A DNA stretch of 64,000 nucleotides from Dehalococcoidia bacterium (GTDB lineage: Bacteria; Chloroflexota; Dehalococcoidia; DSTF01; WHTK01): contig OZ252017.1 in the NCBI GenBank assembly GCA_965247485.1, forward strand, positions 771,192 to 835,191, written 5' to 3'. The position numbers and the translations under genes were made by a program. The notes below the pieces were generated by a model. It saw only the letters and a program-made list of their open reading frames with translations, searched no databases and had not been told where the DNA came from. Below are positions 12,952-27,535 of the stretch, piece after piece (within the stretch, counting starts at the first letter, position 1; every line of letters begins with the position of its first letter).

Positions 12952-13072
12952 TCCTTTAGTCAACGCGTCCCTTCCGATTCGCCGCGGCAGTTCACGATGC
13001 CCGTGTCAAGACCCTGTATTTACGTTCGCCCCTTTTGATTGCCTAGCTTTCTTTCTGGAGGGGCGGATTCCA

Positions 13073-13318
13073 ATCGCCGAGCGAGCGAAAGGGGCCCGGG
13101 CCTAGCCCGCTTTCATCTTGGGAGCAAACGCATTTTTGCCCACGGCAAGTAAAGCCAGCATCGCTGGCGACGCATTGCCAGAATTCCAAACGGGCCCGGG
13201 CGGAGCCCGCTTTCATCCTGGCTGCAGACGCATATTTTGCCCCTGGCAAGGGTCACACCCATTGCCAGAATTCCAAACGATGGCCGGGAGGGTTAAATAT
13301 CCGGGGTGGGGCAACGCG
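13073..13318. repeat. composite repeat locus A: box1 (ATCGCCGAGCGAGCG), 2 tandem ~100-bp units (13092-13191, 13192-13280), then box2 (GGGTTAAATATCCGGGGTGGGGCAACGCG, 13290-13318)
   Basis: Tandem units share GGGCCCGGGC..AGCCCGCTTTCATC.TGG...ACGCAT.TTTTGCCC..GGCAAG...CATTGCCAGAATTCCAAAC. Box1 and box2 recur at 13966-14039 and 21162-21256. Confidence 0.55.
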
Positions 13319-13438
13319 CCGATACTCACCTGGCGTAGCAAGTCCTTCAGTGCACGCGGCCAATCGAAACTCTGCCTTCTGAGACTCAGACTGCTTCGGT
13401 GCGGCCGTTCGCGAGAGAAGCAGGCACTAAACTAAGCT

Positions 13439-13927
13439 ATGCCTATAGAGCTGCCGGACATGGACCCTTGCATCCTGTGCGACTACATCGATGGCCGCCG
13501 CGACGACTGGCTGGTAATCGAGGACTCCGAGCTGTTCGTGATCATGCTGACCGCCTTTCAGTTCGAGGTTGGTCAAGTGCTGATCATCACCAAGCGCCAC
13601 GTCTCGACCCTGATGGACGTCACCTCTGAAGAAGCTGCGGCGGTCATCGATGCCGCCCAGCGGATCAGCCGGGCAATGGTCGAGGTTCTCGACCCCGACG
13701 GCATCACCATGTACCAGAACACCGGCGCCTGGGCCGGCCAGGCCGTGCCTCACTTCCACTTCCACGTGGTGCCGCGCCAGCCCGGCAGCGATTGGGGTCT
13801 GGGGCCGCCGCATCTGGCACGGCTCGATTCCGAAGAACGCAAGGCGCAGGCGCAGGCGCCAATCCCGATAACCGAGGAAAAACGACAGACGGCCGAACAG
13901 CTAAGACGCGGCCTAAGAAAGCTCTAA
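13439..13927 (+). CDS. HIT family hydrolase
   Basis: Histidine triad HFHFHVVP. 162 aa. Confidence 0.8.
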   Translation: MPIELPDMDPCILCDYIDGRRDDWLVIEDSELFVIMLTAFQFEVGQVLIITKRHVSTLMDVTSEEAAAVIDAAQRISRAMVEVLDPDGITMYQNTGAWAGQAVPHFHFHVVPRQPGSDWGLGPPHLARLDSEERKAQAQAPIPITEEKRQTAEQLRRGLRKL

Positions 13928-13965
13928 GAGGCTCAATTCTGCGTCGTCAGTGGGGGGCGGCTTCT

Positions 13966-14039
13966 TCTCGCCGAGTGAGCGGCAGCGAGCGAGGTGTGGG
14001 TGGGACGGGTGGGTTAAATATCCGGGGTGGGGCAACGCG
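13966..14039. repeat. composite repeat locus B: box1 TCTCGCCGAGTGAGCGGCAGCGAGCGAGGTG plus box2 GGGTTAAATATCCGGGGTGGGGCAACGCG
   Basis: Near-identical to locus C (21162-21256). Lies in the convergent HIT/HAD intergenic region. Confidence 0.55.
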
Positions 14040-14126
14040 ACGACGCTCACCGACATGACAAATTGGCTAAGGAACACTGCCAAAAGAACCGCGAGGCTAC
14101 AAAAGTGTCTGCCGCAGTCATGGCGC

Positions 14127-14858
14127 CTAGGTTTGCGGAGCCATGAGCGCAGGCAGCTCCACCAGAGACGTAATCTCAAAGTCCGGTCGAGGGTCGCCGT
14201 CCCGCAGCTCGACGCCCTGATCTCGATATCGATTGATCCAGACCGAAGTGATCCCGGCCGCGTTGGCGCCGCCGATGTCGGCCATGAGGTTGTCACCGAC
14301 GTGCCAAGCGTTCTCGGCCTTCACTCCCAGACCATCCAGGGCGAGGTTGAATACCTTAGCGTCCGGCTTGGCGACGCCGATTTCGCCCGAGACGATGACA
14401 GCGCCGAAACGCTCTTCGATGCCGTTGCCACGCAGCGCTCCGCGTTGGCGACCGGAGGCATCGTTGGTGATCACCGCCAGCGGCAGGTGGTTTGGCAGCC
14501 GGGCCAAAAGCTGGGCGGCATCCCCGTAGAGAACTAGCGACTCGATATGCAACTGCCAGTGCATCTCGGCGGCTGCGCTGACTAGCGCCTCGTCGTTGAA
14601 GCCACAGGTGGCGAGCGCCCGCCGCCAAACCTGAAAGTTAACGCCTGGGTCTTGGATGCGTCCCAAGATCCAGTCCTGCTCGATCTCGGGCCAAACGGCC
14701 GCGAAGGCCTCCCGATCCGCCTTTTGTAGCCGCGCAGCGTCGAGACCGTCAGTGGCAGCGGAGATCGCCTCGCAGGTGCGCGCTATCGCCTCGGTGTTGC
14801 CGCCGCCGTCGAGCAGCGTGCCGTCCAGGTCGAACAGCAGGGCTTGCGGAGGGTTCAT
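14127..14858 (-). CDS. HAD-IA family hydrolase (phosphatase)
   Basis: LLFDLDGTLLDG motif I. C-terminal VGDNLMADIGGANAAG motif. Confidence 0.75.
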   Translation of the reverse strand: MNPPQALLFDLDGTLLDGGGNTEAIARTCEAISAATDGLDAARLQKADREAFAAVWPEIEQDWILGRIQDPGVNFQVWRRALATCGFNDEALVSAAAEMHWQLHIESLVLYGDAAQLLARLPNHLPLAVITNDASGRQRGALRGNGIEERFGAVIVSGEIGVAKPDAKVFNLALDGLGVKAENAWHVGDNLMADIGGANAAGITSVWINRYRDQGVELRDGDPRPDFEITSLVELPALMAPQT

Positions 14859-15142
14859 GGTATCAGGATTTCAGGCGTGCCAGGCGGCAAAGACCAGAGC
14901 TTCATGTGCGACCAGCTCGTAAGTCGATGTAGAATCGGAAATCAAGAACTTTTAATTCCGCGCTAAGGAGCATCTTCGGATCGTTGACAGCCAAGACAGT
15001 TCGCCTGAGCGAAGTCTAGATAACACTCGCGACCTAGTCCTTCTCGTAAACGTCCAGTCCATTGACAACCAAACTCTTGAACACATCAAGATTCTCACAA
15101 TAAACGAGGATCCTATAAGCCTCGCCAAGAGCCTGCTGGCCA

Positions 15143-16882
15143 ATGCACTTCGAGCTTCGCACTAGGCTTTCAGGAGGCCTCAAGATAATTCCGGAAATCT
15201 TGGATTTCCGAGTGTGCCAGCTTGAAGGCCTCAATGGGGTTGGAAAAACCGCGGCCGTCCGGCTCCTGGAAATTGCTACCGGCAACCAACCTTACGAGGG
15301 ATCCGTCCCTCAGTGGCGCGCCTTGAAGGCATCGTTAGGCGCAGCGACCGTGAGTGTGCAATCTCTTGCCGGAGCGTCAACTCTAGATTTAGTCCTGACT
15401 CCGACGTCATGGCCCGATTTCCCAACCACGGACCTAGACTCCCTCGGTTACGCTCAAATTGACGGCCGACGAACCAGTTTGACGGAAGCAAGAACCCTGC
15501 TGTCAGTAACCAGAATTTCTGGTGATGAGACTCTTCTTGGGCACTTCCGGGGTCAGGTGGAGGACCTGGGGGAGCGCGTAACGAACGCAGCCGCGATTCT
15601 CGAGGAGCGTTGGAGCTCAGCAAAGTCACTTCTGAATCAGCTTGCCGAAGAAGTCGAAACGATTGAAAGCGTTGACATTGAATCATCTTACTTGAACCGC
15701 GAGACTCTGAGACTCAGACATCATGACCTTCGGGAAAAAAGAAGAGCTGCGGCTGATCAGGTTGGCCGAATCAAGGAATTGGAAGACGCCGAGAGCCTCA
15801 TGAAGCGCGTGCAGGCTCGTCTACCCGATCTGAACGCGCAGATGGCCTCCCTAGAAGCCGAACTAAGAGACGTGGAAGGCCAGCACCGTTCTCTTCAAGA
15901 TGAACTCAACGCACAAATTCGTAAGCAACTACAGGCCGAGCAACTTGCTGATGCTCTCGAGCGCTCGCAACGTAATCTTCACCGAGCCACGACGGACGGT
16001 CTTGAGGCCACAACAACTCTCATTAAGCTTCTGGAGTCCCTCACGCTGGAGGAAAATGCGCTTGGTCCCGAGCTGAACCGCCTCGATCAGAGGAGGGCCG
16101 ACGTCGGCCGCGAGAAGGATGACCTTGATCTGTTACCCAGCATGATTCGGCTCATAGATCGCGTACGGGAGCCGCTTCTGGACGAAAGCTTCAGCGCCCT
16201 CCGTGAGGAAACGCTGGGGGAGGTCGAAGGCAAAGGCATCACATCAAGACTCCTAGGTGAGGGTCTAGACTCACGCCGAGGTGAGTTAACTATCGGTGAT
16301 ACGTTTGATCGGCTTTTGGAGTTAGACAGGCAGATTTCCACTCTAGAGGGTCGCCGCAAAGTTGTCTTTCGCGCGCAGAGTTCAGTTGACAACCGCAATC
16401 GCGCGTCCAGACGGGTCGCGAAGTGGCAAGAGGGAGTCAACGAGCTCGAAGGGCAGATTGCCTTGCAAGAGTCAACGGACTACCAGCTAAGAGGAAGACT
16501 TAGAGATACGGAAGAATCACTAGGGTCCCTGATTCGCCAACGCGTTGAGCTGCAAACTGCTATCTCCGAGTTGTCGGTGTTTGGCTCTGAGGAAGACCTG
16601 CAGACGAGAGTGGACTTGATCCGTGCTGAAGTGTCTTCAGACCCCAGCGGAGCAACCACTTTTGCAGATGCCGTCGCCACTGGTGAGAAGGCGAGTGAGG
16701 AACTCGGCGTGGCTGCGGAGCAGCTGGCCAAGGTAGACCAAAAGATTGGGGAGTTCGAGTCACGAGTCTCGAATGTAGTCGGGCGCATCTCTACGGCTCA
16801 GCAGTTCTCCTGGGTACGGGAAACGTTGGAAGGCTATCTCCCACAGCTGGCACGGACGTGCGGCAAGCCGCTGCTCTGCTAA
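15143..16882 (+). CDS. P-loop NTPase N-terminus (GLNGVGKT) fused to a ~450-aa coiled-coil; SMC/SbcC/RecF-like head without a C-terminal ATPase half
   Basis: N-terminal IPEILDFRVCQLEGLNGVGKTAAVRLLEIATG. The rest is heptad-rich with charged Q/E/R/L content. Local GC is clearly lower than the flanks (about 14.9-17.2 kb). ORF 16858-17121 may be a frameshifted tail with no ATPase motifs. Confidence 0.5.
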   Translation: MHFELRTRLSGGLKIIPEILDFRVCQLEGLNGVGKTAAVRLLEIATGNQPYEGSVPQWRALKASLGAATVSVQSLAGASTLDLVLTPTSWPDFPTTDLDSLGYAQIDGRRTSLTEARTLLSVTRISGDETLLGHFRGQVEDLGERVTNAAAILEERWSSAKSLLNQLAEEVETIESVDIESSYLNRETLRLRHHDLREKRRAAADQVGRIKELEDAESLMKRVQARLPDLNAQMASLEAELRDVEGQHRSLQDELNAQIRKQLQAEQLADALERSQRNLHRATTDGLEATTTLIKLLESLTLEENALGPELNRLDQRRADVGREKDDLDLLPSMIRLIDRVREPLLDESFSALREETLGEVEGKGITSRLLGEGLDSRRGELTIGDTFDRLLELDRQISTLEGRRKVVFRAQSSVDNRNRASRRVAKWQEGVNELEGQIALQESTDYQLRGRLRDTEESLGSLIRQRVELQTAISELSVFGSEEDLQTRVDLIRAEVSSDPSGATTFADAVATGEKASEELGVAAEQLAKVDQKIGEFESRVSNVVGRISTAQQFSWVRETLEGYLPQLARTCGKPLLC

Positions 16883-17105
16883 CCACGCTCTCGGCCGCTA
16901 TTGGCCAAATCCGCGATCAGGCTAGTGAATTTGACCGGGCGAAAGGGCGAATCACATCTTCCTTAAGTTCTGTCGCCCGGAGGATCGGCTCGCAGTCTCT
17001 GGAAGAGACTGCTCTGGCAACGGGCAAGGAGGCCCAGGTTGAAGCCAGCAGGGTACCGGAACCAACGGTCATAAGGTCCACGTCCGGTGCCGCTAGGGGC
17101 TCCCA

Positions 17106-17145
17106 AATATCACCGCGGTGATATAATTGTCACCGCGGTGATATT
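17106..17145. repeat. double palindrome ATATCACCGCGGTGATAT / TCACCGCGGTGA, 6 nt apart
   Basis: Perfect 18-bp palindrome followed by a second 12-16-bp copy. It lies at the 3' boundary of the low-GC island, overlapping the end of ORF 16858-17121. Confidence 0.45.
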
Positions 17146-17274
17146 TGGACAATTGCTCCTCACAGATAGCTGCCCCGCCTAAATATACTAATCCTCATCT
17201 TCAGTGGCATATTCGAAGCCGCCGTGAAATCGGACATCTTCTACGGGCACGGCGCCATCTGTCTCCACCCATCA

Positions 17275-17346
17275 GCTCACTCCATTGCCACCCTCCGTCC
17301 GCCGCATGCTGATTAAGGCTCTTCTACTGGGTTTAATCGCCGCGAC
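17275..17346. promoter_or_regulatory. orphan copy (E0) of the conserved Rieske-gene upstream element (CCATTGCC ... ATTAA-N17-TTTAAT)
   Basis: Aligns by eye (about 70%) with 21375-21450 upstream of Rieske-2. Partly aligns with 18758-18843 upstream of Rieske-1. No Rieske gene follows this copy; the convergent GNAT-1 3' end does. Confidence 0.35.
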
Positions 17347-17367
17347 TGATGGACAGGCCACGCCTCT

Positions 17368-17955
17368 TTACGCCAGCCTCAAATACCAAACGAACTGCAC
17401 CTCGTCGGCGTAGGGCGGCTGATAGAAGAAGCGGTTGACGGCGCCGAGCTCGCAGCCCATGGCGGCGTAGAAGCGGCAGGCTGGGACGTTGATGTCCTGG
17501 GTCTCGATTTTGAGCAGGTGGCAGCTGCGCTCCCGCGCCCACGCGGCGGCGGCGCTGAATAGCGCCTTGCCAATCCCGCCGCGGCGGGTGTCCGGGGCCA
17601 CGCGGATGTCCCACAACGCGGCAATATCCTTGCGGCCCTCAAGAAACCAGACGTCATCGGTATCAAAGGCGACCACGGCGCCGCCGACTCGGAGGCTGTC
17701 GTCAAAAGCCGCAAAAACGGCCCATCGCGAGGTGTCCCAGCGTTTGGGCCAGTCAGTGAGGTGTTCGCCCTCGTCCGAGTCCGGATCGTCGACGTAGCCC
17801 GGCGTCACCGGCTCCAGGACCAGATTGAAGCCGCCGGTTGCCACGTCGAACGGCTCAACCCGGAATCGCGAATCGACCTCAAACGCCATCGGCACGCTCG
17901 CGTAGGCCTCGAAGGTCGCGGCAGTCGGCGGCTCTTCGACAATTGTCAGGCTCAT
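17368..17955 (-). CDS. GNAT family N-acetyltransferase (with ~90-aa N-terminal extension)
   Basis: C-terminal acetyl-CoA-binding region RRGGIGKALFSAAAAWARERSCHLLKIETQDINVPACRFYAAMGCE. Intact paralog of the disrupted copy at 20406-21072. Confidence 0.75.
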   Translation of the reverse strand: MSLTIVEEPPTAATFEAYASVPMAFEVDSRFRVEPFDVATGGFNLVLEPVTPGYVDDPDSDEGEHLTDWPKRWDTSRWAVFAAFDDSLRVGGAVVAFDTDDVWFLEGRKDIAALWDIRVAPDTRRGGIGKALFSAAAAWARERSCHLLKIETQDINVPACRFYAAMGCELGAVNRFFYQPPYADEVQFVWYLRLA

Positions 17956-17970
17956 CGAATAACCCTACTA

Positions 17971-18666
17971 CTAGACAACACCCAGCACGGCCTTGCGATG
18001 CAGCGCGCTGATGATCTCGTCCACCGTGGCCGAAGTCCAGATGTGATAGAAGGGCGATTCCAGCAGCTCGGTAAACTCGCGCTCGCCGTGCAGCGGCGCG
18101 TCCTGGTTCTGGGCCAAACGATCCTTGTGATAGATCGCCGGGTACTCGGTGAAGTGATAGAGGTAGTCCATATCGCTGTTATAGAAGGCGCAAACCGGGA
18201 TCGATTGCCAGGTTTGGCCGTTTTTGTGGTTGGGAAATTCCGCCATAATGTCGGCGTTGCTGTCCGGCTCATCGGCTAGGCTCGGTATGCTGGCGTCTGA
18301 GAATCTCTGGCCATCGCGCCGGAAGATGCGCAGCTCCATGCCGCTCAACTCTGCCATGCGCGCGAAGGTCGGCAGGTCGCGGCGACAGTCCGCGGAGAAT
18401 TCTTCGGAGATTACCAGAATTTTGGCCGGGCCGTTGGGCAGCGCCACCAGCCATCGCAACGCAGCTTCCTGGTCCTCGCTGAGCCGTGACTTTTCAAACG
18501 CATCGCGTAGGGTGGCGCTAAAGTCGATCCTCGGACCCATACCCGACTCGCGTTTGAGGTTTTGCGGCGTTCCGATATAGGCGACGTACTCTTCGAAGGT
18601 CATGCCTTGTTCGAAGCGAGCGGGAGTTACAACTGAAGAAATCGTCCCACTCTTTGGACCTTGCAA
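17971..18666 (-). CDS. hypothetical protein (231 aa), co-oriented with and immediately upstream of GNAT-1
   Basis: ORF only. No recognisable motif. 15-nt gap to GNAT-1 suggests an operon. Absent from the second, duplicated cassette. Confidence 0.45.
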   Translation of the reverse strand: MQGPKSGTISSVVTPARFEQGMTFEEYVAYIGTPQNLKRESGMGPRIDFSATLRDAFEKSRLSEDQEAALRWLVALPNGPAKILVISEEFSADCRRDLPTFARMAELSGMELRIFRRDGQRFSDASIPSLADEPDSNADIMAEFPNHKNGQTWQSIPVCAFYNSDMDYLYHFTEYPAIYHKDRLAQNQDAPLHGEREFTELLESPFYHIWTSATVDEIISALHRKAVLGVV

Positions 18667-18757
18667 CTCACGGCTGCTGACAATATCACCTCAAACCAGC
18701 GATTTCTCAACGGTGTGCCCGATAAAGTTTTCGTCCCAGGCAGTGGCAAGAAATGCA

Positions 18758-18843
18758 CGTACTCCCCATTGCCGATCGCTCCTTACCGGTCTATGATTGA
18801 CGCACTTTCGCAAGCATTTAGTTGTTCGGGACACGGTTTTTGC
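18758..18843. promoter_or_regulatory. conserved upstream element E1 (GTACTCCCCATTGCCGATCGCTCC...) preceding Rieske-1
   Basis: The first ~25 nt are near-identical to 21375-21399. The remainder is partly conserved. Confidence 0.35.
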
Positions 18844-18869
18844 CGAGTCTGGGATGGAGGCTCACCCTC

Positions 18870-20213
18870 ATGACAATCGCTTATCGAGACGAGGAAATGC
18901 TGCGCATGGTCGACCCCGCGACCGGAACCGTCGACCGCCGCATGTTTGCCGAGCAGGATCTGTACGAACTCGAACTCGAGCGCATCTTTGCCCGGGCCTG
19001 GAACTTTATTGCCCATGACTCGCAAATCCCTAACCCCGGCGATTTCTTTATGACTTTCATCGGCGAGGATCGCGTGATCTGTGTGCGCGACAACGATGGC
19101 AACCCTCAGGTGCTGGTAAACACCTGCCGCCATCGCGGCAACGCGATCTGCCGCGCCGAGGAGGGTCACGCCACCTCGTTTATGTGCACCTACCACGGTT
19201 GGACCTACGACCTCAAGGGCGCCCTGGTCGGTGTGCCCGGCTTTAAAGAAGTCTACCACGAGGAGCTCGACCGCGAAAACTGGGGCTTGATCAAGGCCGC
19301 CCAGGTCGAGACCTACAAAGGTTTTGTCTTTGCCACCATGGACCCAGCGGCACCCACGCTTGGCGAATTCCTCGGCGGCGTCGGTCGTATGGGGCTCGAC
19401 TTGATCGCCGAGCGGGGCGATATCCAGGTCGTTCCCGGCATCCAGAAATACACGATCCCTTGCAACTGGAAGCTGGCCGTGGACAACGTCTACGACTACT
19501 ACCACCCCCAGCTCAGCCACGCCTCTTCGACAATGTCCGGCTACGGCTTCCGCCGTAACGCCACCGGCAACGTCGCCACCGGCGACAGTTCCGGGCTGAT
19601 GCGCGACCACATGGTCCTGCTGGGCGACTACGGCCACGGCATCGGTGGTCCCTTTAGCACACCGGAGACCGACACCGCGATCGCCGGCAACCCCGGTCAG
19701 GACGACTCCTGGCGCGAGCGGCCCGAGGCCCAGAAGGCCCTTGGACCGGCCGGGATCAAGTCGCGCGGCCACCCCAACATCTTCCCCAACCTCTGGGTTG
19801 GCAGCGGCCCTCAGGTCAGCCTGCGCCACCCCAAAGGCCCCGGCATTACAGAAATCTGGTGGTTCACCCTGATCGATCCGTCAAAAGAAGCCGAGCTCTA
19901 CAACACGCAGAAAAGCCGCGCCAATCACACCTTTGGCCCGGCCGGCATGCTGGAGCAGGACGACGGCGAGAACTGGGGTCAGAGCACCCGGGGTATGGTT
20001 GGCAATGTGGCCCAGAAGTTCCCGCTGCACTACGCGATGGGTAAGGGTCACGGCGAAATCATCGACGACGAGGGCAGCCCACCACGGATCGAGACCCATG
20101 TAAACGAGCACGCCCAGTTCTGGTTCTACCGCGGCTGGGCCGATTGGATGGCCGCACCAACCTGGGACGATCTCCGGGCTAACCGCACGCCGCCGCCGAA
20201 AGATTACGCTTAG
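18870..20213 (+). CDS. Rieske non-heme iron ring-hydroxylating oxygenase, large (alpha) subunit, paralog 1
   Basis: Rieske CRHRG..H-x17-CTYHGW. Mononuclear Fe motif NWKLAVDNVYDYYHPQLSH (D-x2-H-x4-H). GGAGG sits 9 nt upstream of the ATG at 18870. 447 aa. Confidence 0.9.
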   Translation: MTIAYRDEEMLRMVDPATGTVDRRMFAEQDLYELELERIFARAWNFIAHDSQIPNPGDFFMTFIGEDRVICVRDNDGNPQVLVNTCRHRGNAICRAEEGHATSFMCTYHGWTYDLKGALVGVPGFKEVYHEELDRENWGLIKAAQVETYKGFVFATMDPAAPTLGEFLGGVGRMGLDLIAERGDIQVVPGIQKYTIPCNWKLAVDNVYDYYHPQLSHASSTMSGYGFRRNATGNVATGDSSGLMRDHMVLLGDYGHGIGGPFSTPETDTAIAGNPGQDDSWRERPEAQKALGPAGIKSRGHPNIFPNLWVGSGPQVSLRHPKGPGITEIWWFTLIDPSKEAELYNTQKSRANHTFGPAGMLEQDDGENWGQSTRGMVGNVAQKFPLHYAMGKGHGEIIDDEGSPPRIETHVNEHAQFWFYRGWADWMAAPTWDDLRANRTPPPKDYA

Positions 20214-20237
20214 TAGGGTCGATACGAGAAAAGAAAA

Positions 20238-20272
20238 AGGCCGGGGTGCCGCGCTCAGCCCGGCTTTTTTCT
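20238..20272 (+). terminator. intrinsic terminator after Rieske-1 (GGCCGGGG...GCCCGGC plus TTTTTTCTTTTT)
   Basis: GC stem then a long T tract, 25 nt past the stop. Confidence 0.6.
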
Positions 20273-20403
20273 TTTTGATCCTTTTTTGATCCTTCGGCGC
20301 ATGGGGGGTTTTTGACCTTGGGGTCAAGTTCCCCCGCTCGGGAACACGCAGGGGCACGACTGGCTAAAGCCGAACAAGAAAAGCCCGCGGTGACCGGCGG
20401 CCG
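20271..20403. mobile_element. MITE-like repeat, copy X (intergenic)
   Basis: Begins with tandem TTTTTGATCC x2. Body TTCGGCGCATGGGGGGTTTTTGACCTTGGGGTCAAGTTCCCCCGCTCGGGAACACGCAGGGGCACGACTGGC... is about 90% identical to the reverse complement of 20683-20811. Confidence 0.5.
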
Positions 20404-20405
20404 GT

Positions 20406-21072
20406 CTACTCCAGCCTCAGATACCAGACAAACTGCACCTCGCCGGCGTCGGGCGGCTGATAGGCGAAGCGATTGACGAGGCCGAGTTCACAGCCCATGG
20501 CGGCGTAAAAGCGGCAGGCCGCGACATTGACGTTTTGGGTCTCGATTTTGAGCAGGCGACAGCCGCGTTCTTTGGCCCACTCGACGGCGGCGCTGAACAG
20601 AGCCTTGCCGACACCGCCCTGGCGCGCCTCCGACGAAACCCGGATATCCCACAACTCGGCTATATCTTTGCGACCCTCAAGAGGATCAAAAAGGGAAAAG
20701 CCGGCCGCGGGCTTCTCTTGTCCGGCTTTGGCGAGTCGTGCCCTTAGGTGTTCCCGGGCGGGGGAACTCGGCCCCGAGGTCAAAAACCGCCCATGCGCCG
20801 AAGGATCAAAAAAAGTCATCGTAGGCCGCCAGCACCCCCCACCTCGAGGTGTCCCAGCGGTTTCCCCAGTCCGTGGGGCTATCGCCTACTTTGGTGTCGT
20901 AATCTTTGGTGTATGAAGGCGTCACCGGTTCCAAAACCAGGCTGAAACCACCGGCCTCGGCGTCAAACGGGCCCAGCCGGAACCGCGACTCTACCTGAAA
21001 GGCGATCGAAACGCTTTTGTAGGCCGCAAACGTCGCGGCATGCGGCGGTTCTTCAACAATCGTCAGGCTCAT
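20406..21072 (-). pseudogene. GNAT family N-acetyltransferase, paralog 2, disrupted by a ~120-bp repeat insertion
   Basis: N-part (20806-21072) and C-part (20406-20819) match GNAT-1 and are in different frames. About 19 codons (SLRVGGAVVAFDTDDVWF) are replaced by repeat-derived sequence. Confidence 0.75.
20683..20811. mobile_element. MITE-like repeat, copy Y, inserted in GNAT-2 and flanked by 10-bp direct repeats GGATCAAAAA
   Basis: Direct repeats at 20683-20692 and 20802-20811. Interior is about 90% identical in inverse orientation to 20292-20403. Contains internal GC hairpins. Confidence 0.55.
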
Positions 21073-21161
21073 GAACGCATTTTAGCTACGTGGGTACGAG
21101 TCGCGTAGACCACGTGTTGAAGGCCGCGTTTACGGAAGGCTTTTCGGGTGGAGTGGTTTCA

Positions 21162-21256
21162 TCTCGCCGAGCGAGCGGCAGCGAGCGAGGTGCGGGCCGG
21201 CCCCGCAGGTTGCTGGGAGGGTTAAATATCCGGGGTGGGGCGACGGTCCTGTACTC
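21162..21256. repeat. composite repeat locus C: box1 TCTCGCCGAGCGAGCGGCAGCGAGCGAGGTG, GC palindrome GCGGGCCGGCCCCGC, box2 GGGTTAAATATCCGGGGTGGGGCGACGG
   Basis: Matches loci A and B. Lies in the divergent GNAT-2 / Rieske-2 intergenic region. Confidence 0.55.
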
Positions 21257-21374
21257 AACTGGCCCAACAAGTCGCAACCGATCCCTTCCTTGTTTCGCCT
21301 CTTCGCGAGGCAACAGCGCGGTTCCGCGGCTCGCTCGAGGTGCCAACCTAGTGCCGCTCTCGCAACGCGGTACG

Positions 21375-21450
21375 GGGTACTACCCATTGCCGATCCCACC
21401 CCGCGGCGCTACTATTAAAGCGCTTTTTACTGCGTTTAATTGCTCCCGAC
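21375..21450. promoter_or_regulatory. conserved upstream element E2 preceding Rieske-2, containing AT-rich inverted repeat ATTAAA-N17-TTTAAT
   Basis: Shares GGTACTACCCATTGCCGATCCCACC with E1. TTTAAT sits about 58 nt upstream of the ATG and is a possible -10. Confidence 0.35.
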
Positions 21451-21496
21451 CGGCTCCGCTAGGCGGCGTCAAGTCCAAAAATCGGAGGTTTCTCTC

Positions 21497-22840
21497 ATGA
21501 CAATCGCCTACCGAGACGAAGAGATGCTGCACATGGTCGATCCGGAAACCGGCACCGTGGACCGGCGCATTTTCGCCGAGAAGGATATCTACGAGCTGGA
21601 GCTGGAGCGCATCTTCGCCCGCGCCTGGAACTTTATGGGCCACGACTCCCAGATCCCCAACCCGGGTGACTTTTTCATGTCCTTCATCGGCGAGGACCGC
21701 GTCATCCTGGTCCGTGACAACGACATGCAGCCGCAAGTCCTGGTCAACACCTGCCGGCACCGCGGCAACGCCATTTGCCGGGCCGAGGAAGGTCACGCCA
21801 CCTCTTTCATGTGCACCTACCACGGCTGGACCTATGACCTGAAAGGCGCGCTGGTCGGTGTGCCCGGCTTCAAGGAGGTCTACCACGAGGAGCTCGACCG
21901 GGAAAACTGGGGCTTAATCAAGGCCGCCCACGTCGATAGCTACAAGGGCTTTATCTTCGCCACCATGGACCCGGAAGCGATCGGTCTCAACGAGTTTCTC
22001 AACCCGGTCGGCCGCATGGGCCTCGACATGATGGCCCACAAGGGCAACCTGACGGTGATCGGCGGTATCCAGAAGTACACGATCCCCTGCAACTGGAAGC
22101 TGGCCGCCGACAACGTCTACGACTGGTATCACCCGCAGCTCACCCACGCCTCGTCCTCGATGTCCGGCTACGGCTTCCGCCGCCCCGGCCTCAGCAACAT
22201 CGCCTCCGGCCAGGGCAACTCGCTTCTGCGCGAGCACATGGTGGTGCTCGGCGATTACGGCCACGGCATCAGCGGCCCGCGTCAGGTCGAGGGCCAGGAG
22301 AGCCCGCTGGCGGGCAGCCCGGGGCAGGACGACTCCTGGCGGGAAACCCCCGAGGCCAAGGCGGCCCTGGGACCGGACGCCATGCGCTCCCGCGGCCACT
22401 CTCACATCTTTCCCAATTGCTGGGTTACGGCCGGCGACCAGATCAGCGTCCGCATGCCCAAGGGGCCGAATAAGACCGAGATCTGGTGGTTCACGCTGCT
22501 GGACCCTGACAAGGATCCGGAGATCTATAACTCCAAGTTCTACCGCGCCAACCACACCTTTGGCCCGTCCGGGATGCTGGAGCAGGAAGACGGCGAGAAC
22601 TGGGGTGAGAGCACGCGAGGAACCCACGGTCTGGCCACCAAGAAGTTCCCCCTGCACTACGCCATGGGCCTCGGCCACGGCGAGGTGCTCGACGACGAGG
22701 GCAGCCCGCCCCGCATCGAAACCACGGTCAATGAGCACGCTCAGTTCTGGCTCTATCGCGGCTGGGCCGACTGGATGTCATCGCCAACCTGGGCCGACCT
22801 GCGCGCCAACCACACGCCACCACCACTCGACAAGGCCTAA
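21497..22840 (+). CDS. Rieske non-heme iron ring-hydroxylating oxygenase alpha subunit, paralog 2
   Basis: About 90% identical by eye to paralog 1 over the N-terminal 150 aa. Same Rieske and Fe motifs. CGGAGG RBS. Confidence 0.9.
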   Translation: MTIAYRDEEMLHMVDPETGTVDRRIFAEKDIYELELERIFARAWNFMGHDSQIPNPGDFFMSFIGEDRVILVRDNDMQPQVLVNTCRHRGNAICRAEEGHATSFMCTYHGWTYDLKGALVGVPGFKEVYHEELDRENWGLIKAAHVDSYKGFIFATMDPEAIGLNEFLNPVGRMGLDMMAHKGNLTVIGGIQKYTIPCNWKLAADNVYDWYHPQLTHASSSMSGYGFRRPGLSNIASGQGNSLLREHMVVLGDYGHGISGPRQVEGQESPLAGSPGQDDSWRETPEAKAALGPDAMRSRGHSHIFPNCWVTAGDQISVRMPKGPNKTEIWWFTLLDPDKDPEIYNSKFYRANHTFGPSGMLEQEDGENWGESTRGTHGLATKKFPLHYAMGLGHGEVLDDEGSPPRIETTVNEHAQFWLYRGWADWMSSPTWADLRANHTPPPLDKA

Positions 22841-22942
22841 GCTTTTTTGATCGTGGGCGCATACAGGTTTTCGACCTCTTGCCCGGGTTCCACCTCACGG
22901 CAGCTGGTTGAAACAGCTGTGACATGAAGAACCAAAGGAAAC

Positions 22943-22975
22943 GGCCGGGCTAAGCCGGGCTTTTTCTTTTTCGAT
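22943..22975 (+). terminator. degenerate terminator-like GC element plus T tract after Rieske-2 (homolog of 20238-20272)
   Basis: ACGGCCGGGCTAAGCCGGGCTTTTTCTTTTT. Stem symmetry is imperfect. A degenerate MITE-like segment at 22842-22900 precedes it. Confidence 0.35.
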
Positions 22976-23001
22976 CCTTTTTTAATCCAGAGGCGGATGG
23001 G

Positions 23002-23318
23002 CCCCATGCCCGACCCACCGACGCTAATTACCCCCGCTTGCTCAGCAAGCGTACTGAGCCAAGCTACGCCCCATGCCCGACCCACCGACGCTAATTACGC
23101 CCGCTTGCTCAGCAAGCGCACTGAGCCAAGTTACGTCCCATACCCGACCCGCCGACGCTATCTACCCCCGCTTGCGCAGCAAGCGTACTGAGCCCCCATG
23201 CCCGACCCGCCGACGCTATTTACCCCCGCTTGCGCAGCAAGCGTACTGAGCCAAGTTACGCCCCATGCCCGACCCGCCGACGCCAATTACCCCCGCTTGC
23301 GCAGCAAGCGTACTGAGC
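23002..23318. repeat. tandem array of 5 copies of a ~67-bp unit, each with internal palindrome GCTTGC(T/G)CAGCAAGC
   Basis: Units start at about 23002, 23069, 23136, 23194 and 23261 (CCCCATGCCCGACCC(A/G)CCGACGCTAATTACCCCCGCTTGCTCAGCAAGCGTACTGAGCCAAG.TACG). There are no unique spacers. The overlapping ORF 22997-23191 is judged spurious. Confidence 0.8.
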
Positions 23319-23334
23319 GCTAGCGGAAGTCAGC

Positions 23335-24057
23335 GTGTCAGTTGACACCGGCATCCGGCCACGACAAGATTTCAGCAGCTTGATTGAAGACTCGCACTCA
23401 TCGACAAAGACCGCCGCGCTGGTAGTCGCGCGGCTGCGAAGCGCCCGCGGCACCAGCTTCGCTGCCCTAACACTGGCCGCCTGCGCCACCCTGCTTCTGG
23501 CGGCTTGCTCCGCTTCCGACGAATCCGCGACCGATGCCGCGCCAACCAGCACCTTGGGCCTCGCTCCAACTCAAGCGGCTACCGCGGCCGCCATCGCCAG
23601 CCCAGCTCCGCCAACCCCGCGCTCAGCCGCCGACACCTCTCGTGACCTGACCGGCTTCCCTTTTTCAACCAGCGACCTGCGCCAGGCTCTCGAAATCGCC
23701 GGTTACTCGTTTTCCGGTGTGGAGGAAAGAGCGCCTATTTGCCCCCAAACCTCGGTTCCGGAGTTGCCCTTCTGGTCCCCCAACCTCGCCGGCAACGACT
23801 CTGGGCCGATCCTCGTGCTCTGGGTTTACCCGAGCTTCGAGGCCCTGGAGGCCGACTGGGAAGCCGAGCCCGGAGCGCCACCCAAGCCGCTTTTGGACGG
23901 CTGCGAATTGCCCACCGGTTTCGTTTATTGGAACCAGAACCTGGTTTTGGTCTTCGAGACCTGGTCCAGCCTCGGCGTGGAATCGCCGGTTGACATCGAT
24001 GGCCGCATCCCCAGCGAGCATCCGGCGGTTACCGCCTTCCTCTCGATGACTCCTTGA
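23335..24057 (+). CDS. putative lipoprotein (signal peptide with lipobox LLLAAC), Thr/Pro/Ala-rich linker
   Basis: ARLRSARGTSFAALTLAACATLLLAACSAS. True start uncertain. Confidence 0.45.
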   Translation: MSVDTGIRPRQDFSSLIEDSHSSTKTAALVVARLRSARGTSFAALTLAACATLLLAACSASDESATDAAPTSTLGLAPTQAATAAAIASPAPPTPRSAADTSRDLTGFPFSTSDLRQALEIAGYSFSGVEERAPICPQTSVPELPFWSPNLAGNDSGPILVLWVYPSFEALEADWEAEPGAPPKPLLDGCELPTGFVYWNQNLVLVFETWSSLGVESPVDIDGRIPSEHPAVTAFLSMTP

Positions 24058-24156
24058 GCCAAGCGTCCAGCCTCCAGCCCCCCGGCGAGCTTCAAACGCG
24101 TATCCTTAGAGTCCGCGAAGGAGTTTCCCCTCCGTAGCCTTCGAAGGAGTTTCAGC

Positions 24157-24642
24157 ATGAAAATAGAGCAACGTCTAGAAGAGCTCGGCCTGGTCTTGCC
24201 CGAGCCCCTGGTGGCGCCTCAGGGCTTTCGTTTGCCCTTCGCCAACGTGAGGGTCTCGGCCAACCATGCTTACGTGGCTGGGCACGGGCCTCAGAACCCG
24301 GACGGAAGCGTCGCCGAACCGCTTGGCAAGGTCGGAACCGACCTCACGGTCGAACAGGGCTACCACGCCGCCCAGTTGACCGCCCTCGCGATCCTCGGCG
24401 ATCTACAGCGCGAACTTGGCGACCTCGACCGCGTAACCGCCTGGCTGTGCGTCTTTGGCATGGTCAACGTGGCCCCTGGTTTTAACAATACTCCCGGCGT
24501 GATCAACGGCTTTAGCGACCTGATCATCAAGGTCTACGGCGAGGAGGCCGGCCTCCACACCCGCTCCGCAGTCGGCTTGGCCGAGCTCCCCTTCAACATC
24601 CCGGTCGAAATCGAGGCCGAAGTCGAAATCGACGGCGCCTAG
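24157..24642 (+). CDS. RidA/YjgF family protein
   Basis: C-terminal RSAVGLAELPFNIPVEIEAEVEI typical of the Rid family. 161 aa. Confidence 0.75.
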   Translation: MKIEQRLEELGLVLPEPLVAPQGFRLPFANVRVSANHAYVAGHGPQNPDGSVAEPLGKVGTDLTVEQGYHAAQLTALAILGDLQRELGDLDRVTAWLCVFGMVNVAPGFNNTPGVINGFSDLIIKVYGEEAGLHTRSAVGLAELPFNIPVEIEAEVEIDGA

Positions 24643-24862
24643 CTCTGGCTCCGGCTTGAGGGTCGCCCCGCCGCTGAACCCACCCATAGGCTCGATCCAA
24701 AGCTTCATCCTGAGAGCGATTGGTAATCAAACACTTCGCGTTATGTCACCAAGAGGCGTCTTCTTCCGCCTCGATCGAAATCAGCGAGATTTCAACAGTT
24801 CACTCCGTCCGCTCGTCGGAGATGGAGCAAAGCTCCTACTTCCTCGCTTCTTTCTTTTGGTG

Positions 24863-25345
24863 TTACCCCGGCCGAGATCCAGCCCCAGCCGCGCGCTCAA
24901 TCTGCGCGGCGTGGTCATGACAATGCACCGCGTAGACTTCTAGCCAAGACTCCAGGCTGTATTCGCCGCTTTCGCTGTGGTATCCGGCCCGTTGCCAGTC
25001 CGAATCCTGCAGGTGGCCAATTATCTGGGCCGTGGTGTCGCGGGCCGCCTTTAATGCCGCCACCGCTGGGGCAATTGGCCGCTGCTCGTAGAAGAGCCGC
25101 CGTGCAAACTCCGCTTCGTCGTAGCCATGAATTCGCGGGCTTTCCTCACACAGGAGCAACCTGAAACGGATCGCCGACGTCATCTCGCTGTCCGCCAGAT
25201 GATGCACAATCTGGCGCGCCGACCAGCCACCTCCCGGGTCCTGCCTGTCCAGCTGCTTGTCACTCAATCCCTCCAAGGCATGCGCGACAACGCCGTATCC
25301 ATCGCCATAGCGCTCGATCAGCTCCGCGCGTTTCTCTTGGTCCAT
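24863..25345 (-). CDS. DinB/YfiT-like (DinB_2) putative metal-dependent thiol transferase family protein
   Basis: His-containing helices (IVHHLADSE ... HCHDHAAQI) typical of the DinB_2 fold. 160 aa. Confidence 0.6.
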   Translation of the reverse strand: MDQEKRAELIERYGDGYGVVAHALEGLSDKQLDRQDPGGGWSARQIVHHLADSEMTSAIRFRLLLCEESPRIHGYDEAEFARRLFYEQRPIAPAVAALKAARDTTAQIIGHLQDSDWQRAGYHSESGEYSLESWLEVYAVHCHDHAAQIERAAGAGSRPG

Positions 25346-25493
25346 CCTGACAACCTTTCTCCGAGGTTCAATCGAATTAAGGCGCTATTCTACTACGCTG
25401 GCGAACCGCCACGCCCAAGCGGTTCATTGGCCCTTGACCGCCGCCCTAGCCGTGAACCCAGCACCGGAGTATTCTTTGCACGAAAGTAGGAAT

Positions 25494-26087
25494 ATGAGAA
25501 TGCAATCTGACACCGGTGACTCCCCCGCTTACCCGCTCCGCTACGATGTCGAGTACCCCACCGAACTCTCCCGCTGGCTGATCTTTGTCAAATGGTTTTT
25601 GGCCTTCCCTCACTACCTGATCGTCTATGCCCTCGGTATCGTCGCTTCGATAATCGGTGTCATCGCCTTCTTCGCGATCCTGTTCACCAAGCGCTACCCG
25701 CGCGGCCTGTTCAACTTCGATGTTGGCGTCAACCGCTGGAACGCCAACCTCGGAGCCTATGCCGGGCTGCTGAGGGACGAGTACCCGCCTTTTTCCTGGG
25801 ACGAGGGAGAATACCCGGTCACCTTCGAAGTGGACTATCCCGAGACTCTCAATCGCTGGCTGCCGTTGGTGAAATGGCTCCTCGTTTTCCCGCACTATCT
25901 GATCCTGGTTGCCCTCCTGGTTGCTTCATGGGCGGTTGGTTTCGTCGCGTTCTTCGCCATCCTTTTCACCGGACGTTACCCGCGCGGCCTGTTTGACTTC
26001 GTGGTGGGGGTTAATCGCTGGAATCAGCGAGTCATCGCCTACGCCGGTCTGCTGCGGGACGAATATCCGCCCTTCAGTCTGAAGTAG
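25494..26087 (+). CDS. DUF4389-like membrane protein with an internal tandem duplication
   Basis: Block YP..L.RWL.(F/L)VKW(F/L)L.FPHYLI ... FFAILFT.RYPRGLF.F.VGVNRWN...AYAGLLRDEYPPFS occurs twice. Start is 25494 or 25500. Confidence 0.6.
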   Translation: MRMQSDTGDSPAYPLRYDVEYPTELSRWLIFVKWFLAFPHYLIVYALGIVASIIGVIAFFAILFTKRYPRGLFNFDVGVNRWNANLGAYAGLLRDEYPPFSWDEGEYPVTFEVDYPETLNRWLPLVKWLLVFPHYLILVALLVASWAVGFVAFFAILFTGRYPRGLFDFVVGVNRWNQRVIAYAGLLRDEYPPFSLK

Positions 26088-26129
26088 GCCGGAGTTTAAA
26101 GCGCGCTTTGTCCCTAGCGATGCGCCGCC

Positions 26130-27329
26130 TTAGGGATCCACGCGGCCGATAGCGAACTTGAGGTACTCTCCCTCCGGGAAGGCCTCCAGGACCGGATGGT
26201 CGAACGCCGCGCCGTATACCGCGTCCAATTTCCAGTGGCGGCCGGCCTGACCTACGCTGGCTTCGATCGTGGCCAAGAAATCGTCCCGGCCGACGTGGCT
26301 AGAACACGAGGAAGCGCATAGCAAACCGCCCGGCTTGGTGACCTTGGCCGCCATCTCATGCAAGCGTCGATAAGACTTCAGTGCCGCCGGCACAGCGTCC
26401 TTCTTGGCGGCGAAACTTGGCGGATCAGAGACGACAATGTCCCACTGATCGCCACTTTGGATCGCCCGGCGCAGAAATGCGAAGACATCCTCGACCTGGA
26501 AGCCAGCCCTGTCCAGCGCCAGTTGGTTGCGCTCAAAGTTCTGTCGCGCCGCCTCGATCGCCGGCTTGGCCTGGTCCACTGTGTCCGTACGTGTCGCGCC
26601 GGCTACCGCCGCGTGCACCGCGAATCCGCCCGTATAGCCGAACAGGTTCAAAACCGACTTGCCTAGCGCCCGCTCCGCCACCCTTTCGCGGTTCTCGCGC
26701 TGGTCCAGAAACAGGCCGCCCTTTTGTCCCACCGCCGGACTCACGCCGAACCGAATCCCGTTCTCCAGCACTTCGATTTCATCCTCGCCCGCATTTGCTC
26801 CCCGCGCTGCCCGATCTAGCACAGCGCGGAATGCCAACCTTTCGCTGGCGGCCTGGCGCAATCGATCCTCCAGTGGAGCATAAAAGGCCCCCGCACCATC
26901 GCCATCAAAGCGCACTACCAAGATGTCTGCGTAACAATCGATTTGCAGGCCGGGCAGCAGGTCAGCCTCGCCGTGTACCCAACGAAACGCGTTGGTCTGC
27001 TCAAGATTAAGCCGCGATAGCCGGCGGTCCAAAGCCGTCCGCAGCCTCTTGGCCACCAGCGCATCAGCATCGGCGAAACGATGGCCCGGACCGCCCGATT
27101 CCAGCACGCGGACCGCGATCGGCGAGCGCGCGTCCCAGAACCCCCGGGCCAGCGGCCTGCCGTCGCGCGTGCGAACTTCCACCAGTTCGCCGTCTTCGAT
27201 TTCATCCTCAGCCCTGAGAGCATCGCGATAGAGCCAGGGATGGCCGCGTCTGATCGATCTAGCCAGATCCTTCCTCAGGACGATAGGAACCGGTCGCAGT
27301 GCCTCGATCACGGCGGGTGTCCTTTCCAA
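26130..27329 (-). CDS. rlmI: 23S rRNA (cytosine-C5) methyltransferase RlmI-like (PUA plus class I SAM MTase)
   Basis: LNLFGYTGGFAVHAA SAM motif. VVSDPPSFAAKK (DPPxF). N-terminal PUA-like region. 399 aa. Confidence 0.75.
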   Translation of the reverse strand: MERTPAVIEALRPVPIVLRKDLARSIRRGHPWLYRDALRAEDEIEDGELVEVRTRDGRPLARGFWDARSPIAVRVLESGGPGHRFADADALVAKRLRTALDRRLSRLNLEQTNAFRWVHGEADLLPGLQIDCYADILVVRFDGDGAGAFYAPLEDRLRQAASERLAFRAVLDRAARGANAGEDEIEVLENGIRFGVSPAVGQKGGLFLDQRENRERVAERALGKSVLNLFGYTGGFAVHAAVAGATRTDTVDQAKPAIEAARQNFERNQLALDRAGFQVEDVFAFLRRAIQSGDQWDIVVSDPPSFAAKKDAVPAALKSYRRLHEMAAKVTKPGGLLCASSCSSHVGRDDFLATIEASVGQAGRHWKLDAVYGAAFDHPVLEAFPEGEYLKFAIGRVDP

Positions 27330-27535
27330 CCGCCGGGCCGCACGATAAATTCCGGCCCGGACATAACAAGCCTAACCCAATCTGCCGGCCGGCTTCCCAA
27401 TTAGCCTCGGGATCTGAGAGCCGAGCGCGGCCTGTGGCCAATTGTTGACAAGGCAGCTATTATTTGAGCCAACATCCGCTGATCAGCGTCGAATAGACAA
27501 TTCTCGTTCAATTGCAGGTCCAAAGGAGCTCACCC

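Follow-up and report, generated by a model that had tools for sequence, protein, structure and literature searches.

A tandem GNAT-Rieske oxygenase cassette in a Dehalococcoidia bacterium: probable old duplication and differential decay

We describe a locus at which a gene for a GNAT acetyltransferase and a gene for the alpha subunit of a Rieske ring-hydroxylating oxygenase occur twice in a row. The locus occupies 17.2-23.3 kb of a 64-kb stretch of DNA from a Dehalococcoidia bacterium (the window), and it was compared with the related loci L001-L004, L087, L088-L090 and L094 and with the metagenome-assembled genome (MAG) L046. An earlier reading of the window from its letters alone (the sequence-only reading) had proposed an ongoing duplication of this cassette, with one acetyltransferase gene broken by a mobile repeat.

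Organization of the two cassettes

The two cassettes and the element to their left comprise the following features:

17275-17346, plus strand: orphan promoter/leader of the Rieske-2 type, abutting the 3′ end of GNAT-1 (seven-way alignment)
17368-17955, minus strand: GNAT-1, intact gene for a 195-amino-acid acetyltransferase of the streptothricin/nourseothricin-acetyltransferase-like type
17971-18603, minus strand: Thioredoxin_9-like gene (PF14595, E = 1e-11); the open reading frame (ORF) extends to 18666, and the likely ATG start is at 18603
18766-18830, plus strand: predicted promoter/leader P1, with −35 TTGCCG (18769-18774), a spacer of 17 nucleotides (nt), −10 TATGAT (18792-18797) and a conserved leader (promoter scan)
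18870-20213, plus strand: Rieske-1, intact gene for a ring-hydroxylating oxygenase alpha subunit (447 amino acids, ATG start at 18870)
20229-20275, plus strand: terminator-like hairpin behind Rieske-1, made of an A-tract, a GC stem and a T-tract (inverted-repeat search)
20282-20400, plus strand: 3′ flank unit A, which opens with TTTTTTGATCC-TTCGGCGCATGGG-GGTTTTTGACC and abuts the GNAT-2 stop codon (nhmmer, E = 2e-32)
20406-20682, minus strand: C-terminal part of GNAT-2, the last 92 codons, frame-shifted relative to the N-terminal part and matching Acetyltransf_1 (Pfam)
20683-20812, minus strand: insert B, a complete flank unit that lies inverted (nhmmer, E = 8e-36)
20813-21072, minus strand: N-terminal part of GNAT-2, 86 codons that then read into a stop within the insert
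21384-21447, plus strand: predicted promoter/leader P2, with −35 TTGCCG and −10 TACTAT
21497-22840, plus strand: Rieske-2, intact paralogue (447 amino acids, ATG start at 21497) with 76.3% amino acid identity to Rieske-1
22842-23001, plus strand: 3′ flank unit C, including a diverged full unit with terminal hairpin at 22842-22979 (nhmmer, E = 2e-31)

Cassette 1 thus consists of GNAT-1 (−), the thioredoxin-like gene (−), P1, Rieske-1 (+), the hairpin and flank unit A, and cassette 2 of GNAT-2 (−), beginning with its stop codon at 20406, a 424-nt spacer, P2, Rieske-2 (+) and flank unit C. A self-BLAST of 17000-23500 together with a repeat search aligned the 3′ halves of the GNAT genes with 81.9% identity (17369-17644 and 20407-20682), their 5′ halves with 76.7% (17801-17959 and 20918-21075), the Rieske genes with 77.9% over 1344 nt (18867-20191 and 21494-22818) and the terminator flanks with 83% (20248-20305 and 22944-23001). 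This search took the place of a self dot-plot of 17.2-23.4 kb, and its collinear matches (77-82% in the genes, 83% in the terminator flank) are far beyond chance. The layout given by the sequence-only reading, with GNAT (−), an upstream element, Rieske (+), a terminator and a repeat present twice in a row (17368-20403 and 20406-22975), was therefore confirmed. The repeat said to close each cassette is indeed found behind both Rieske genes, but the copy behind Rieske-2 is diverged and was detected by profile search only. In both copies Pfam finds a GNAT domain together with Rieske and Ring_hydroxyl_A domains. GNAT (−), promoter/leader, Rieske (+) and flank unit lie next to each other twice in the same order and orientation, and the synonymous divergence (dS) of the gene pairs is comparable, as for a single event: 0.93 for the Rieske genes and 0.63 and 1.09 for the C-terminal and N-terminal parts of the GNAT genes. 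Because the two gene pairs are repeated together with promoter/leader and 3′ flank, in the same order and with similar synonymous divergence, the locus is a tandem segmental duplication of a paralogous cassette.

The true starts of the Rieske genes are the ATGs listed above. Both products contain PF00355 and PF00848 and are therefore alpha subunits of Rieske non-haem iron oxygenases; both translations show the CRH...CTYH motif and the H-x4-H iron site in the form YHPQL(S/T)H. The proteins are HcaE-like; Rieske-1 gives E = 2e-92 in NCBIfam and matches PDB 8k0a with E = 9e-86, while an exact look-up of its sequence gave no match. They share full-length similarity and the Rieske and catalytic iron motifs with HcaE, the alpha subunit of 3-phenylpropionate/cinnamate dioxygenase, and with the alpha subunit of biphenyl dioxygenase. 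Unlike HcaE itself, they score only 311 and 302 bits against the equivalog model NF042946, which has a cut-off of 830 bits, and no Pfam domain of a beta subunit or reductase was detected among the genes called around the cassettes in related loci. Rieske-1 and Rieske-2 are 76% identical at both the amino acid and the nucleotide level, and the ratio of nonsynonymous to synonymous divergence (dN/dS) is 0.18. Both copies have stayed intact under purifying selection, and their divergence is strongest in the catalytic half. The two oxygenases probably differ in substrate. A sliding-window comparison found no tract of gene conversion between them; the single window with 90% identity is the strictly conserved region of the Rieske cluster.

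Altogether, seven Rieske alpha-subunit paralogues are encoded in the window, further ones beginning at 27536, 31472 and 34874, and a homology search returned thousands of Rieske homologues from Dehalococcoidia. Families of COG4638 ring-hydroxylating dioxygenase alpha paralogues have been reported to be expanded in Chloroflexota/SAR202, which was attributed to duplication within lineages (Saw et al., 2020; PMC6946804). The window resembles these SAR202 families in its many HcaE-like alpha subunits, the host here being placed as Dehalococcoidia only. Unlike the present locus, the families in that study are described at the pangenome level, and the word 'tandem', a GNAT partner, tandem cassettes or decay do not appear. 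A second tandem pair of Rieske alpha genes is located at 52283-53607 and 53674-55008, with about 70% amino acid identity to Rieske-1. Either a frameshift or an error of sequencing splits its first member into overlapping ORFs of 306 and 181 amino acids; L094, a relative, has both genes of this pair intact (441 and 444 amino acids).

GNAT-1 matches Acetyltransf_1 (Pfam, E = 2e-15), Sat3 (NCBIfam, E = 5e-14) and PDB 5c82 (E = 1e-11). The streptothricin/nourseothricin N-acetyltransferases (Sat/STAT/NAT; PDB 5c82) are its best full-length family and structure matches, and both are about 190 amino acids long. In contrast to members of the Sat family, GNAT-1 reaches 52.7 bits against Sat3 (NF000359), far below the curated cut-off of 360 bits, and Sat3 is only the nearest named family. 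Strain L087 encodes a protein that is 99% identical to GNAT-1.

GNAT-2 is a pseudogene inactivated by the insertion of a repeat, since its N-terminal and C-terminal parts open in different frames with the insert between them. The C-terminal part retains the acetyl-CoA motif RQGGVGKAL and the normal stop codon. GNAT-2 had been described as matching GNAT-1 residue for residue; the two are collinear, but their amino acid identity is 67% in the N-terminal part (dN/dS 0.20) and 79% in the C-terminal part (dN/dS 0.18), with a nucleotide identity of 72-82% overall. These ratios suggest that GNAT-2 was under purifying selection for most of its history. The junction alignment shows that about 18 codons of GNAT-1, SLRVGGAVVAFDTDDVWF, are supplanted by the insert in GNAT-2 and that 54 nt are missing at the site. 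The replacement of some 19 codons by a repeat of about 120 bp between direct repeats, as proposed earlier, is accordingly correct in outline: the insert is 120 nt long and has GGATCAAAAA on both sides.

The product of the thioredoxin-like gene has 210 amino acids when translated from the ATG at 18603, in agreement with the gene call in L087. The gene is present in L001 and L087 and absent from L004 and L088. No second copy was found within the window, so that the ORF of 231 amino acids (17971-18666) is indeed unique to cassette 1. Upstream of every Rieske gene of the Rieske-1 or Rieske-2 type (R1/R2-type) in the window, L001 and L004 we found CCATTGCCGATC-N14-CTAYGATT followed by a conserved leader. 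With TTGCCG-N17-TATGAT at 18769-18797, a spacing within the 16-18 nt of sigma-70-type promoters, and with both hexamer positions conserved in six copies, this upstream element reads as a predicted sigma-70-type promoter.

The orphan element left of GNAT-1, which the sequence-only reading had taken as a third copy of the upstream element, proved to be a genuine homologue of the Rieske-2 type. Local alignments gave z = 16 with the region upstream of Rieske-2 in L001 and z = 10.8 with that in the window, and none of 5000 shuffles scored as well; the R1-type copies showed no similarity to it in the same alignments. Against a profile built without it, the orphan scores E = 0.006. Its −10 region is degenerate (GCTGAT), neither a ribosome binding site nor an ATG follows, and the GNAT-1 stop codon is 21 nt away. 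A permissive tblastn search found no coding remnants of a further GNAT or Rieske gene beside it. The simplest reading, to which we give about an even chance, is that the orphan remained from a further unit after a deletion of its oxygenase gene, much like the deletions documented in relatives.

Age of the duplication and decay in relatives

The closest other species is represented by L001 and L002. Genes of the window and their L001 orthologues share 95-96% amino acid and 89-90% nucleotide identity, with dS values of 0.46-0.53 and dN/dS ratios of 0.05-0.06. In a pairwise nucleotide matrix Rieske-1 of the window groups with Rieske-1 of L001 (89%) and with the first Rieske gene of L004, Ra (87%), and Rieske-2 groups with Rieske-2 of L001 (90%); between the Rieske-1 and Rieske-2 groups, identity is 75-77%. 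Because each Rieske copy has its own orthologue in L001 at 89-90% nucleotide identity, the duplication would have taken place well before the split of the present species.

L087 is an independently assembled contig of 1.39 Mb from another sample and the same species. Over 17015-27947 its identity to the window is 99.5%, and it contains the same two cassettes and the same called pieces of GNAT-2 (88 and 137 amino acids). Across the cassettes the two strains differ by scattered substitutions and a single 9-nt indel, which is located in the tandem array at 23001-23318. A recent duplication should give near-identical copies and strains that differ in copy number; here the copies are 76-82% identical and both strains have two cassettes. 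The claim of an ongoing duplication was thus not upheld: the copies, at 76-78% identity, have separate orthologues in another species, and L087 shares both the copy number and the broken GNAT-2. A comparison of related strains for copy-number variation, which had been proposed as a check, likewise found none within the species.

Relatives show the locus in different states of decay. In L001 a gap of only 372 nt separates Rieske-1 from Rieske-2, GNAT-2 has been lost, and all that is left of GNAT-1 is a decayed stub of 57 codons beside the thioredoxin-like gene. The L004 array consists of a GNAT gene, Ra, which is of the Rieske-1 type, and Rb, a third Rieske type that is about 80% identical to both others; its GNAT gene carries a 25-nt insertion that shifts the frame. 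L088, L089 and L090, three assemblies from different samples with at most three differences over 3.1 kb, have one intact GNAT gene, which is the GNAT-1 orthologue by its dS of 0.53, and a single Rieske gene (11136-12445 in reverse-complemented coordinates). This gene is an out-of-frame chimera: the 5′ part of about 600 nt is Rieske-1-like, the 3′ part of about 780 nt is identical to Rieske-2 at 91.5% of nucleotides and 95.5% of amino acids, and the junction (...PGIQ|DNVYDWYHPQ...) lacks 12 codons and shifts the frame. Such a gene is what a deletion from Rieske-1 into Rieske-2 would leave. Since dN of the 5′ part is raised about ten-fold at a dS typical of orthologues, this part seems to have been decaying already before the fusion. 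Deletion and insertional decay at the locus, also part of the earlier proposal, are borne out by the loss of GNAT-2 and truncation of GNAT-1 in L001, the frameshift in L004 and the Rieske fusion in L088. From these states we infer that the GNAT copies are dispensable and were lost differently in different lineages.

More distant GNAT homologues, with 59% and 54% identity, are located in unrelated neighbourhoods and not beside Rieske genes. A conserved functional GNAT-Rieske module was considered and rejected on this ground, and the pairing appears to be a feature of a small clade rather than a widespread module.

The 3′ flank unit, insert B and the history of the locus

The flank unit begins with TTTTT(T)GATCC-TTCGGCGCATGGG-GGTTTTTGACCT and ends with a GC hairpin and a T-tract, directly after which the next TTTTTGATCC follows. 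There are 1.3 units behind each of the two Rieske genes in the window, 2 in L001 and about 3-4 in L088. Most of a first unit is deleted behind Rieske-1; the hairpin at 20229-20275 is what remains of its 3′ end and aligns with the end of the first L001 unit. The region of unit C also holds the first ~35 nt of another unit, which is interrupted by the tandem array. Insert B consists of 120 nt (20683-20802) and a second GGATCAAAAA (20803-20812), the first GGATCAAAAA being at 20683-20692. It is an inverted copy of 20282-20390 in unit A, 89% identical over 109 nt and 314 nt apart, and the similarity of either to the orthologous units of L001 or L088 is lower (84-86%). Read in the GNAT sense direction, insert B presents a terminator-like hairpin with a T-tract (20717-20695, minus strand). 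In strain L087 it differs by one substitution and is otherwise identical. Because insert B has diverged from unit A by 11%, it would not be a recent insertion.

The sequence-only reading had called the unit similar to a miniature inverted-repeat transposable element (MITE). An end-to-end reverse-complement alignment of insert B, unit C and the first L001 unit stayed at the level of shuffled sequences, that is, the unit has no terminal inverted repeats, and a MITE with inverted termini was therefore rejected. All nhmmer matches of a profile built from four copies lie in insert B or in the 3′ flanks of R1/R2-type Rieske genes of the window, L001, L004 and L088; the unit is absent behind the other five Rieske paralogues of the window, as it is from the rest of the intergenic DNA examined. 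The MITE-like label therefore did not hold, as there are neither terminal inverted repeats nor copies outside Rieske 3′ flanks in these four loci. A degenerate pattern that fits four of the six window and L001 copies then known gave one match in L046 and 81 single matches in other taxa, the latter being consistent with chance, and a stricter pattern had no match in JGI metagenomes. No transposase was noticed near the cassettes, although no systematic search was aimed at transposases. Two further ideas about the unit were dropped. Folding of eight copies with RNAalifold (−2.2 kcal/mol, 8 pairs) gave no consensus structure that would indicate a structured RNA, and Rfam families or riboswitches matched 16900-23500 at chance level only. 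An origin of the unit from a GNAT fragment, or a homology-guided insertion, had been considered for the start of insert B, which MAFFT aligned to the replaced codons; by shuffling, this alignment is chance. The unit is best described as a fast-evolving 3′ flank of the Rieske lineage that would have been duplicated with the gene, rather than as a demonstrable mobile element.

Small intergenic repeats of bacteria, including MITEs, are represented by Correia/NEMIS, ERIC, RUP and REP/BIME. Like these, the flank unit is short (about 120 nt) and non-coding, it has a terminator-like hairpin and varies in copy number, and one copy with 10-nt direct repeats disrupts a gene. It differs from them in having no terminal inverted repeats, no dispersed copies in the scanned DNA and no conserved fold, and in being tied to one gene lineage with which it is duplicated. 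Template-switch or quasi-palindrome mutations create inverted copies of nearby sequence in bacteria. Insert B resembles such a mutation as an inverted copy of DNA a few hundred nucleotides away that replaces resident sequence. Unlike in template switching, inverted microhomology is not demonstrable (the unit and the GNAT segment align at chance level), and the 11% divergence bars reconstruction of the original junctions.

Taken together, we consider an old tandem duplication with differential decay to be the likely history of the locus, and we hold it with good confidence. An ancestral cassette of GNAT (−), promoter/leader, Rieske alpha gene (+) and a 3′ flank unit of about 125 nt would have been duplicated in tandem before the species separated, after which both Rieske copies would have been retained and have diverged under purifying selection. 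One complete flank unit would then have replaced about 18 core codons of GNAT-2, causing the frame shift and placing a terminator-like hairpin in the sense direction. A further unit left of GNAT-1 may have lost its oxygenase gene and left the orphan promoter behind, and in the L088 lineage a deletion from Rieske-1 to Rieske-2 would have collapsed the pair into one chimera. Such a history is ordinary paralogue turnover, not active duplication or a jumping element, and calls for no new mechanism. A hotspot with present-day duplication of the cassette and a recent jump of a MITE into GNAT-2 would account for the repeated layout, the direct repeats around the insert and the orphan element, and a difference between strains does start directly left of the cassettes, where 13021-17014 of the window corresponds to 671 nt in L087. 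It is nevertheless very improbable: the copies are 76-82% identical with a dS of about 0.9, both have orthologues in another species, copy number and GNAT-2 lesion are the same in a 99.5% identical strain, and insert B differs by 11% from its nearest relative. A separate acquisition of the second cassette, in which a related GNAT-Rieske pair was transferred or transposed to a place beside the first, could explain why a third Rieske type (Rb of L004, about 80% identical to both) occurs in the same array and why the 5′ part of the L088 gene fits neither type cleanly, and the region to the left is a slot for variable cargo. Order, orientation, promoter/leader and flank unit are common to both copies, however, GNAT and Rieske genes have similar dS, the distant GNAT homologues are unlinked to Rieske genes so that no travelling module is seen, and no mobility genes flank the cassettes; we regard such an acquisition as improbable. 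An assembly artefact by collapse or expansion of repeats has next to no probability: a divergence above 20% between the copies is far too large for repeats to be mis-assembled, L087, assembled independently, has this structure too, and the arrangement with two Rieske genes also occurs in L001, L002 and L003.

The source of insert B is less certain. GGATCAAAAA flanks the insert, the same 10-mer bounds every unit of the arrays and 54 nt of the gene are missing, which raises the question of a target site. We lean slightly towards insert B having been copied locally, in inverted orientation, from the adjacent unit A, because it is closest to unit A, lies inverted 314 nt from it and replaces 54 nt rather than simply being added; template switching within the locus, or illegitimate recombination there, would produce such a copy, transposition from elsewhere being less likely. 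Transposition would involve a non-autonomous element of about 120 nt without inverted termini that targets and duplicates TTTTTGATCC and stacks behind terminators. Insert B has perfect direct repeats of 10 nt at its two ends and is exactly one unit long; these features, the motif at each unit boundary and the varying number of units between genomes all fit this. Yet terminal inverted repeats are lacking, no copy lies outside the 3′ flank of the Rieske lineage in the window, L001, L004 and L088, and pattern searches gave one match in a related MAG (L046) and none in the JGI metagenomes. A simple insertion also leaves the 54 missing nucleotides of GNAT-2 unexplained, the nearest relative of insert B is 314 nt away, and the flanking 10-mers would accompany any copy taken from an array of two units. 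We therefore consider transposition doubtful, and still less likely is the wider proposal that the flank unit is an undescribed small mobile element without inverted termini, with its own terminator hairpin, inserting at TTTTTGATCC. If this were true, a mobile unit at TTTTTGATCC could stack in short arrays behind terminators and occasionally strike a gene, as in GNAT-2. Several points weigh against the old duplication with local copying. The exact 10-nt direct repeats at insert B resemble a target-site duplication, and the same 10-mer is present at every unit boundary, as for a mobile unit with a preferred site. An empty site, meaning an intact GNAT-2, was found in no genome, and the mechanism of insertion is therefore not directly readable. 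The search for dispersed copies covered about 150 kb of DNA of the clade and one exact-pattern scan, which diverged copies elsewhere could escape. The 5′ part of the L088 chimera is 81-83% identical to Rieske-1, which is low for a clean orthologue; its source may be a decayed Rieske-1 or a different paralogue. Finally, because L004 has the third Rieske type, Rb, in the second position, the history would include more than one duplication.

The duplication with subsequent decay would provide a dated example of Rieske family turnover in Dehalococcoidia, in which a gene pair was duplicated with its promoter and 3′ flank and the oxygenases were kept, while the accessory acetyltransferase was lost repeatedly by separate routes (insertion, frameshift, truncation and deletion). 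For annotation, split GNAT calls at such loci would be merged into a single pseudogene, and a chimeric Rieske fragment would be marked as the product of a deletion. The locus also helps to choose pairs of paralogues for substrate studies.

Neighbouring repeats and the variable slot

Two further repeat features lie within or next to cassette 2:

21114-21305, no strand assigned: dispersed small repeat with the core GGTTAAATATCCGGGGTGGGGC, in the spacer between GNAT-2 and Rieske-2
23001-23318, no strand assigned: tandem array of 67-nt units, 4.9 copies (TRF), each with a palindrome GCTTGC(G/T)CAGCAAGC

The GGTTAAATATCCGGGGTGGGGC repeat, which often follows TCTCGCCGAGCGAGCGGCAGCGAGCGAGGTG, is also found at 13283-13344 and 13959-14037 of the window, at 3623-3703, 6229-6311 and 9506-9668 of L001, and at 5450-5564 and 10665-11014 of L088 (reverse-complemented). 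It is present in the spacer between GNAT and Rieske genes in cassette 2 of the window, in cassette 1 of L001 and in the single cassette of L088. Being truly dispersed, it is a better MITE candidate than the flank unit. The tandem array follows cassette 2, lies outside the duplication and was found nowhere else in the window. A small gene of the Transgly_assoc type is present downstream of the Rieske-2 region in L001 and L088 and has no match in the window. Another short repeat, GCCCGCTTTCATC..GG.GCAAACGCAT.TTTGCCC..GGCAAG...CATTGCCAGAATTCCAAACG, occurs in two tandem copies at 13073-13250 of the window and singly in L001 (1399-1510) and L004 (372-490).

Just left of the cassettes, about 4 kb of the window (13021-17014) are replaced by an unrelated segment of 671 nt in L087 (10942-11611), and both flanks are 100% identical between the two up to the edges of the replacement. 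The window segment contains small repeats, an ORF at about 13440-13930, a HAD-hydrolase gene (14127-14858, minus strand) and a gene for a protein of 579 amino acids (15143-16882, plus strand). This protein has an N-terminal P-loop (GLNGVGKT) and a long coiled coil, no Pfam match, and weak SMC/Rad50-like and LmuB/JetC-like matches with E values of 1e-6 to 1e-9. By eye, the segment of L087 contains a candidate fragment of a DNA methyltransferase with a DPFxGxG-like motif. In other relatives the slot between the HAD-hydrolase gene and GNAT-1 is occupied by genes for Crp and a YgaP-like protein (L001), for Upx-like proteins of 410 and 1220 amino acids (L004), or for an RVT_1 reverse transcriptase and a DUF4238 protein (L088). 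The slot is thus variable and possibly defence-related. At 17103-17148, two adjacent and nearly identical 20-nt units, AAATATCACCGCGGTGATAT and AATTGTCACCGCGGTGATAT, each contain the palindrome TCACCGCGGTGA and jointly form a palindrome of 46 nt, which is located just upstream of a stretch (17015-17105) that is 100% identical to L087 and runs there into the methyltransferase-like fragment. This palindrome may be an operator-type site.

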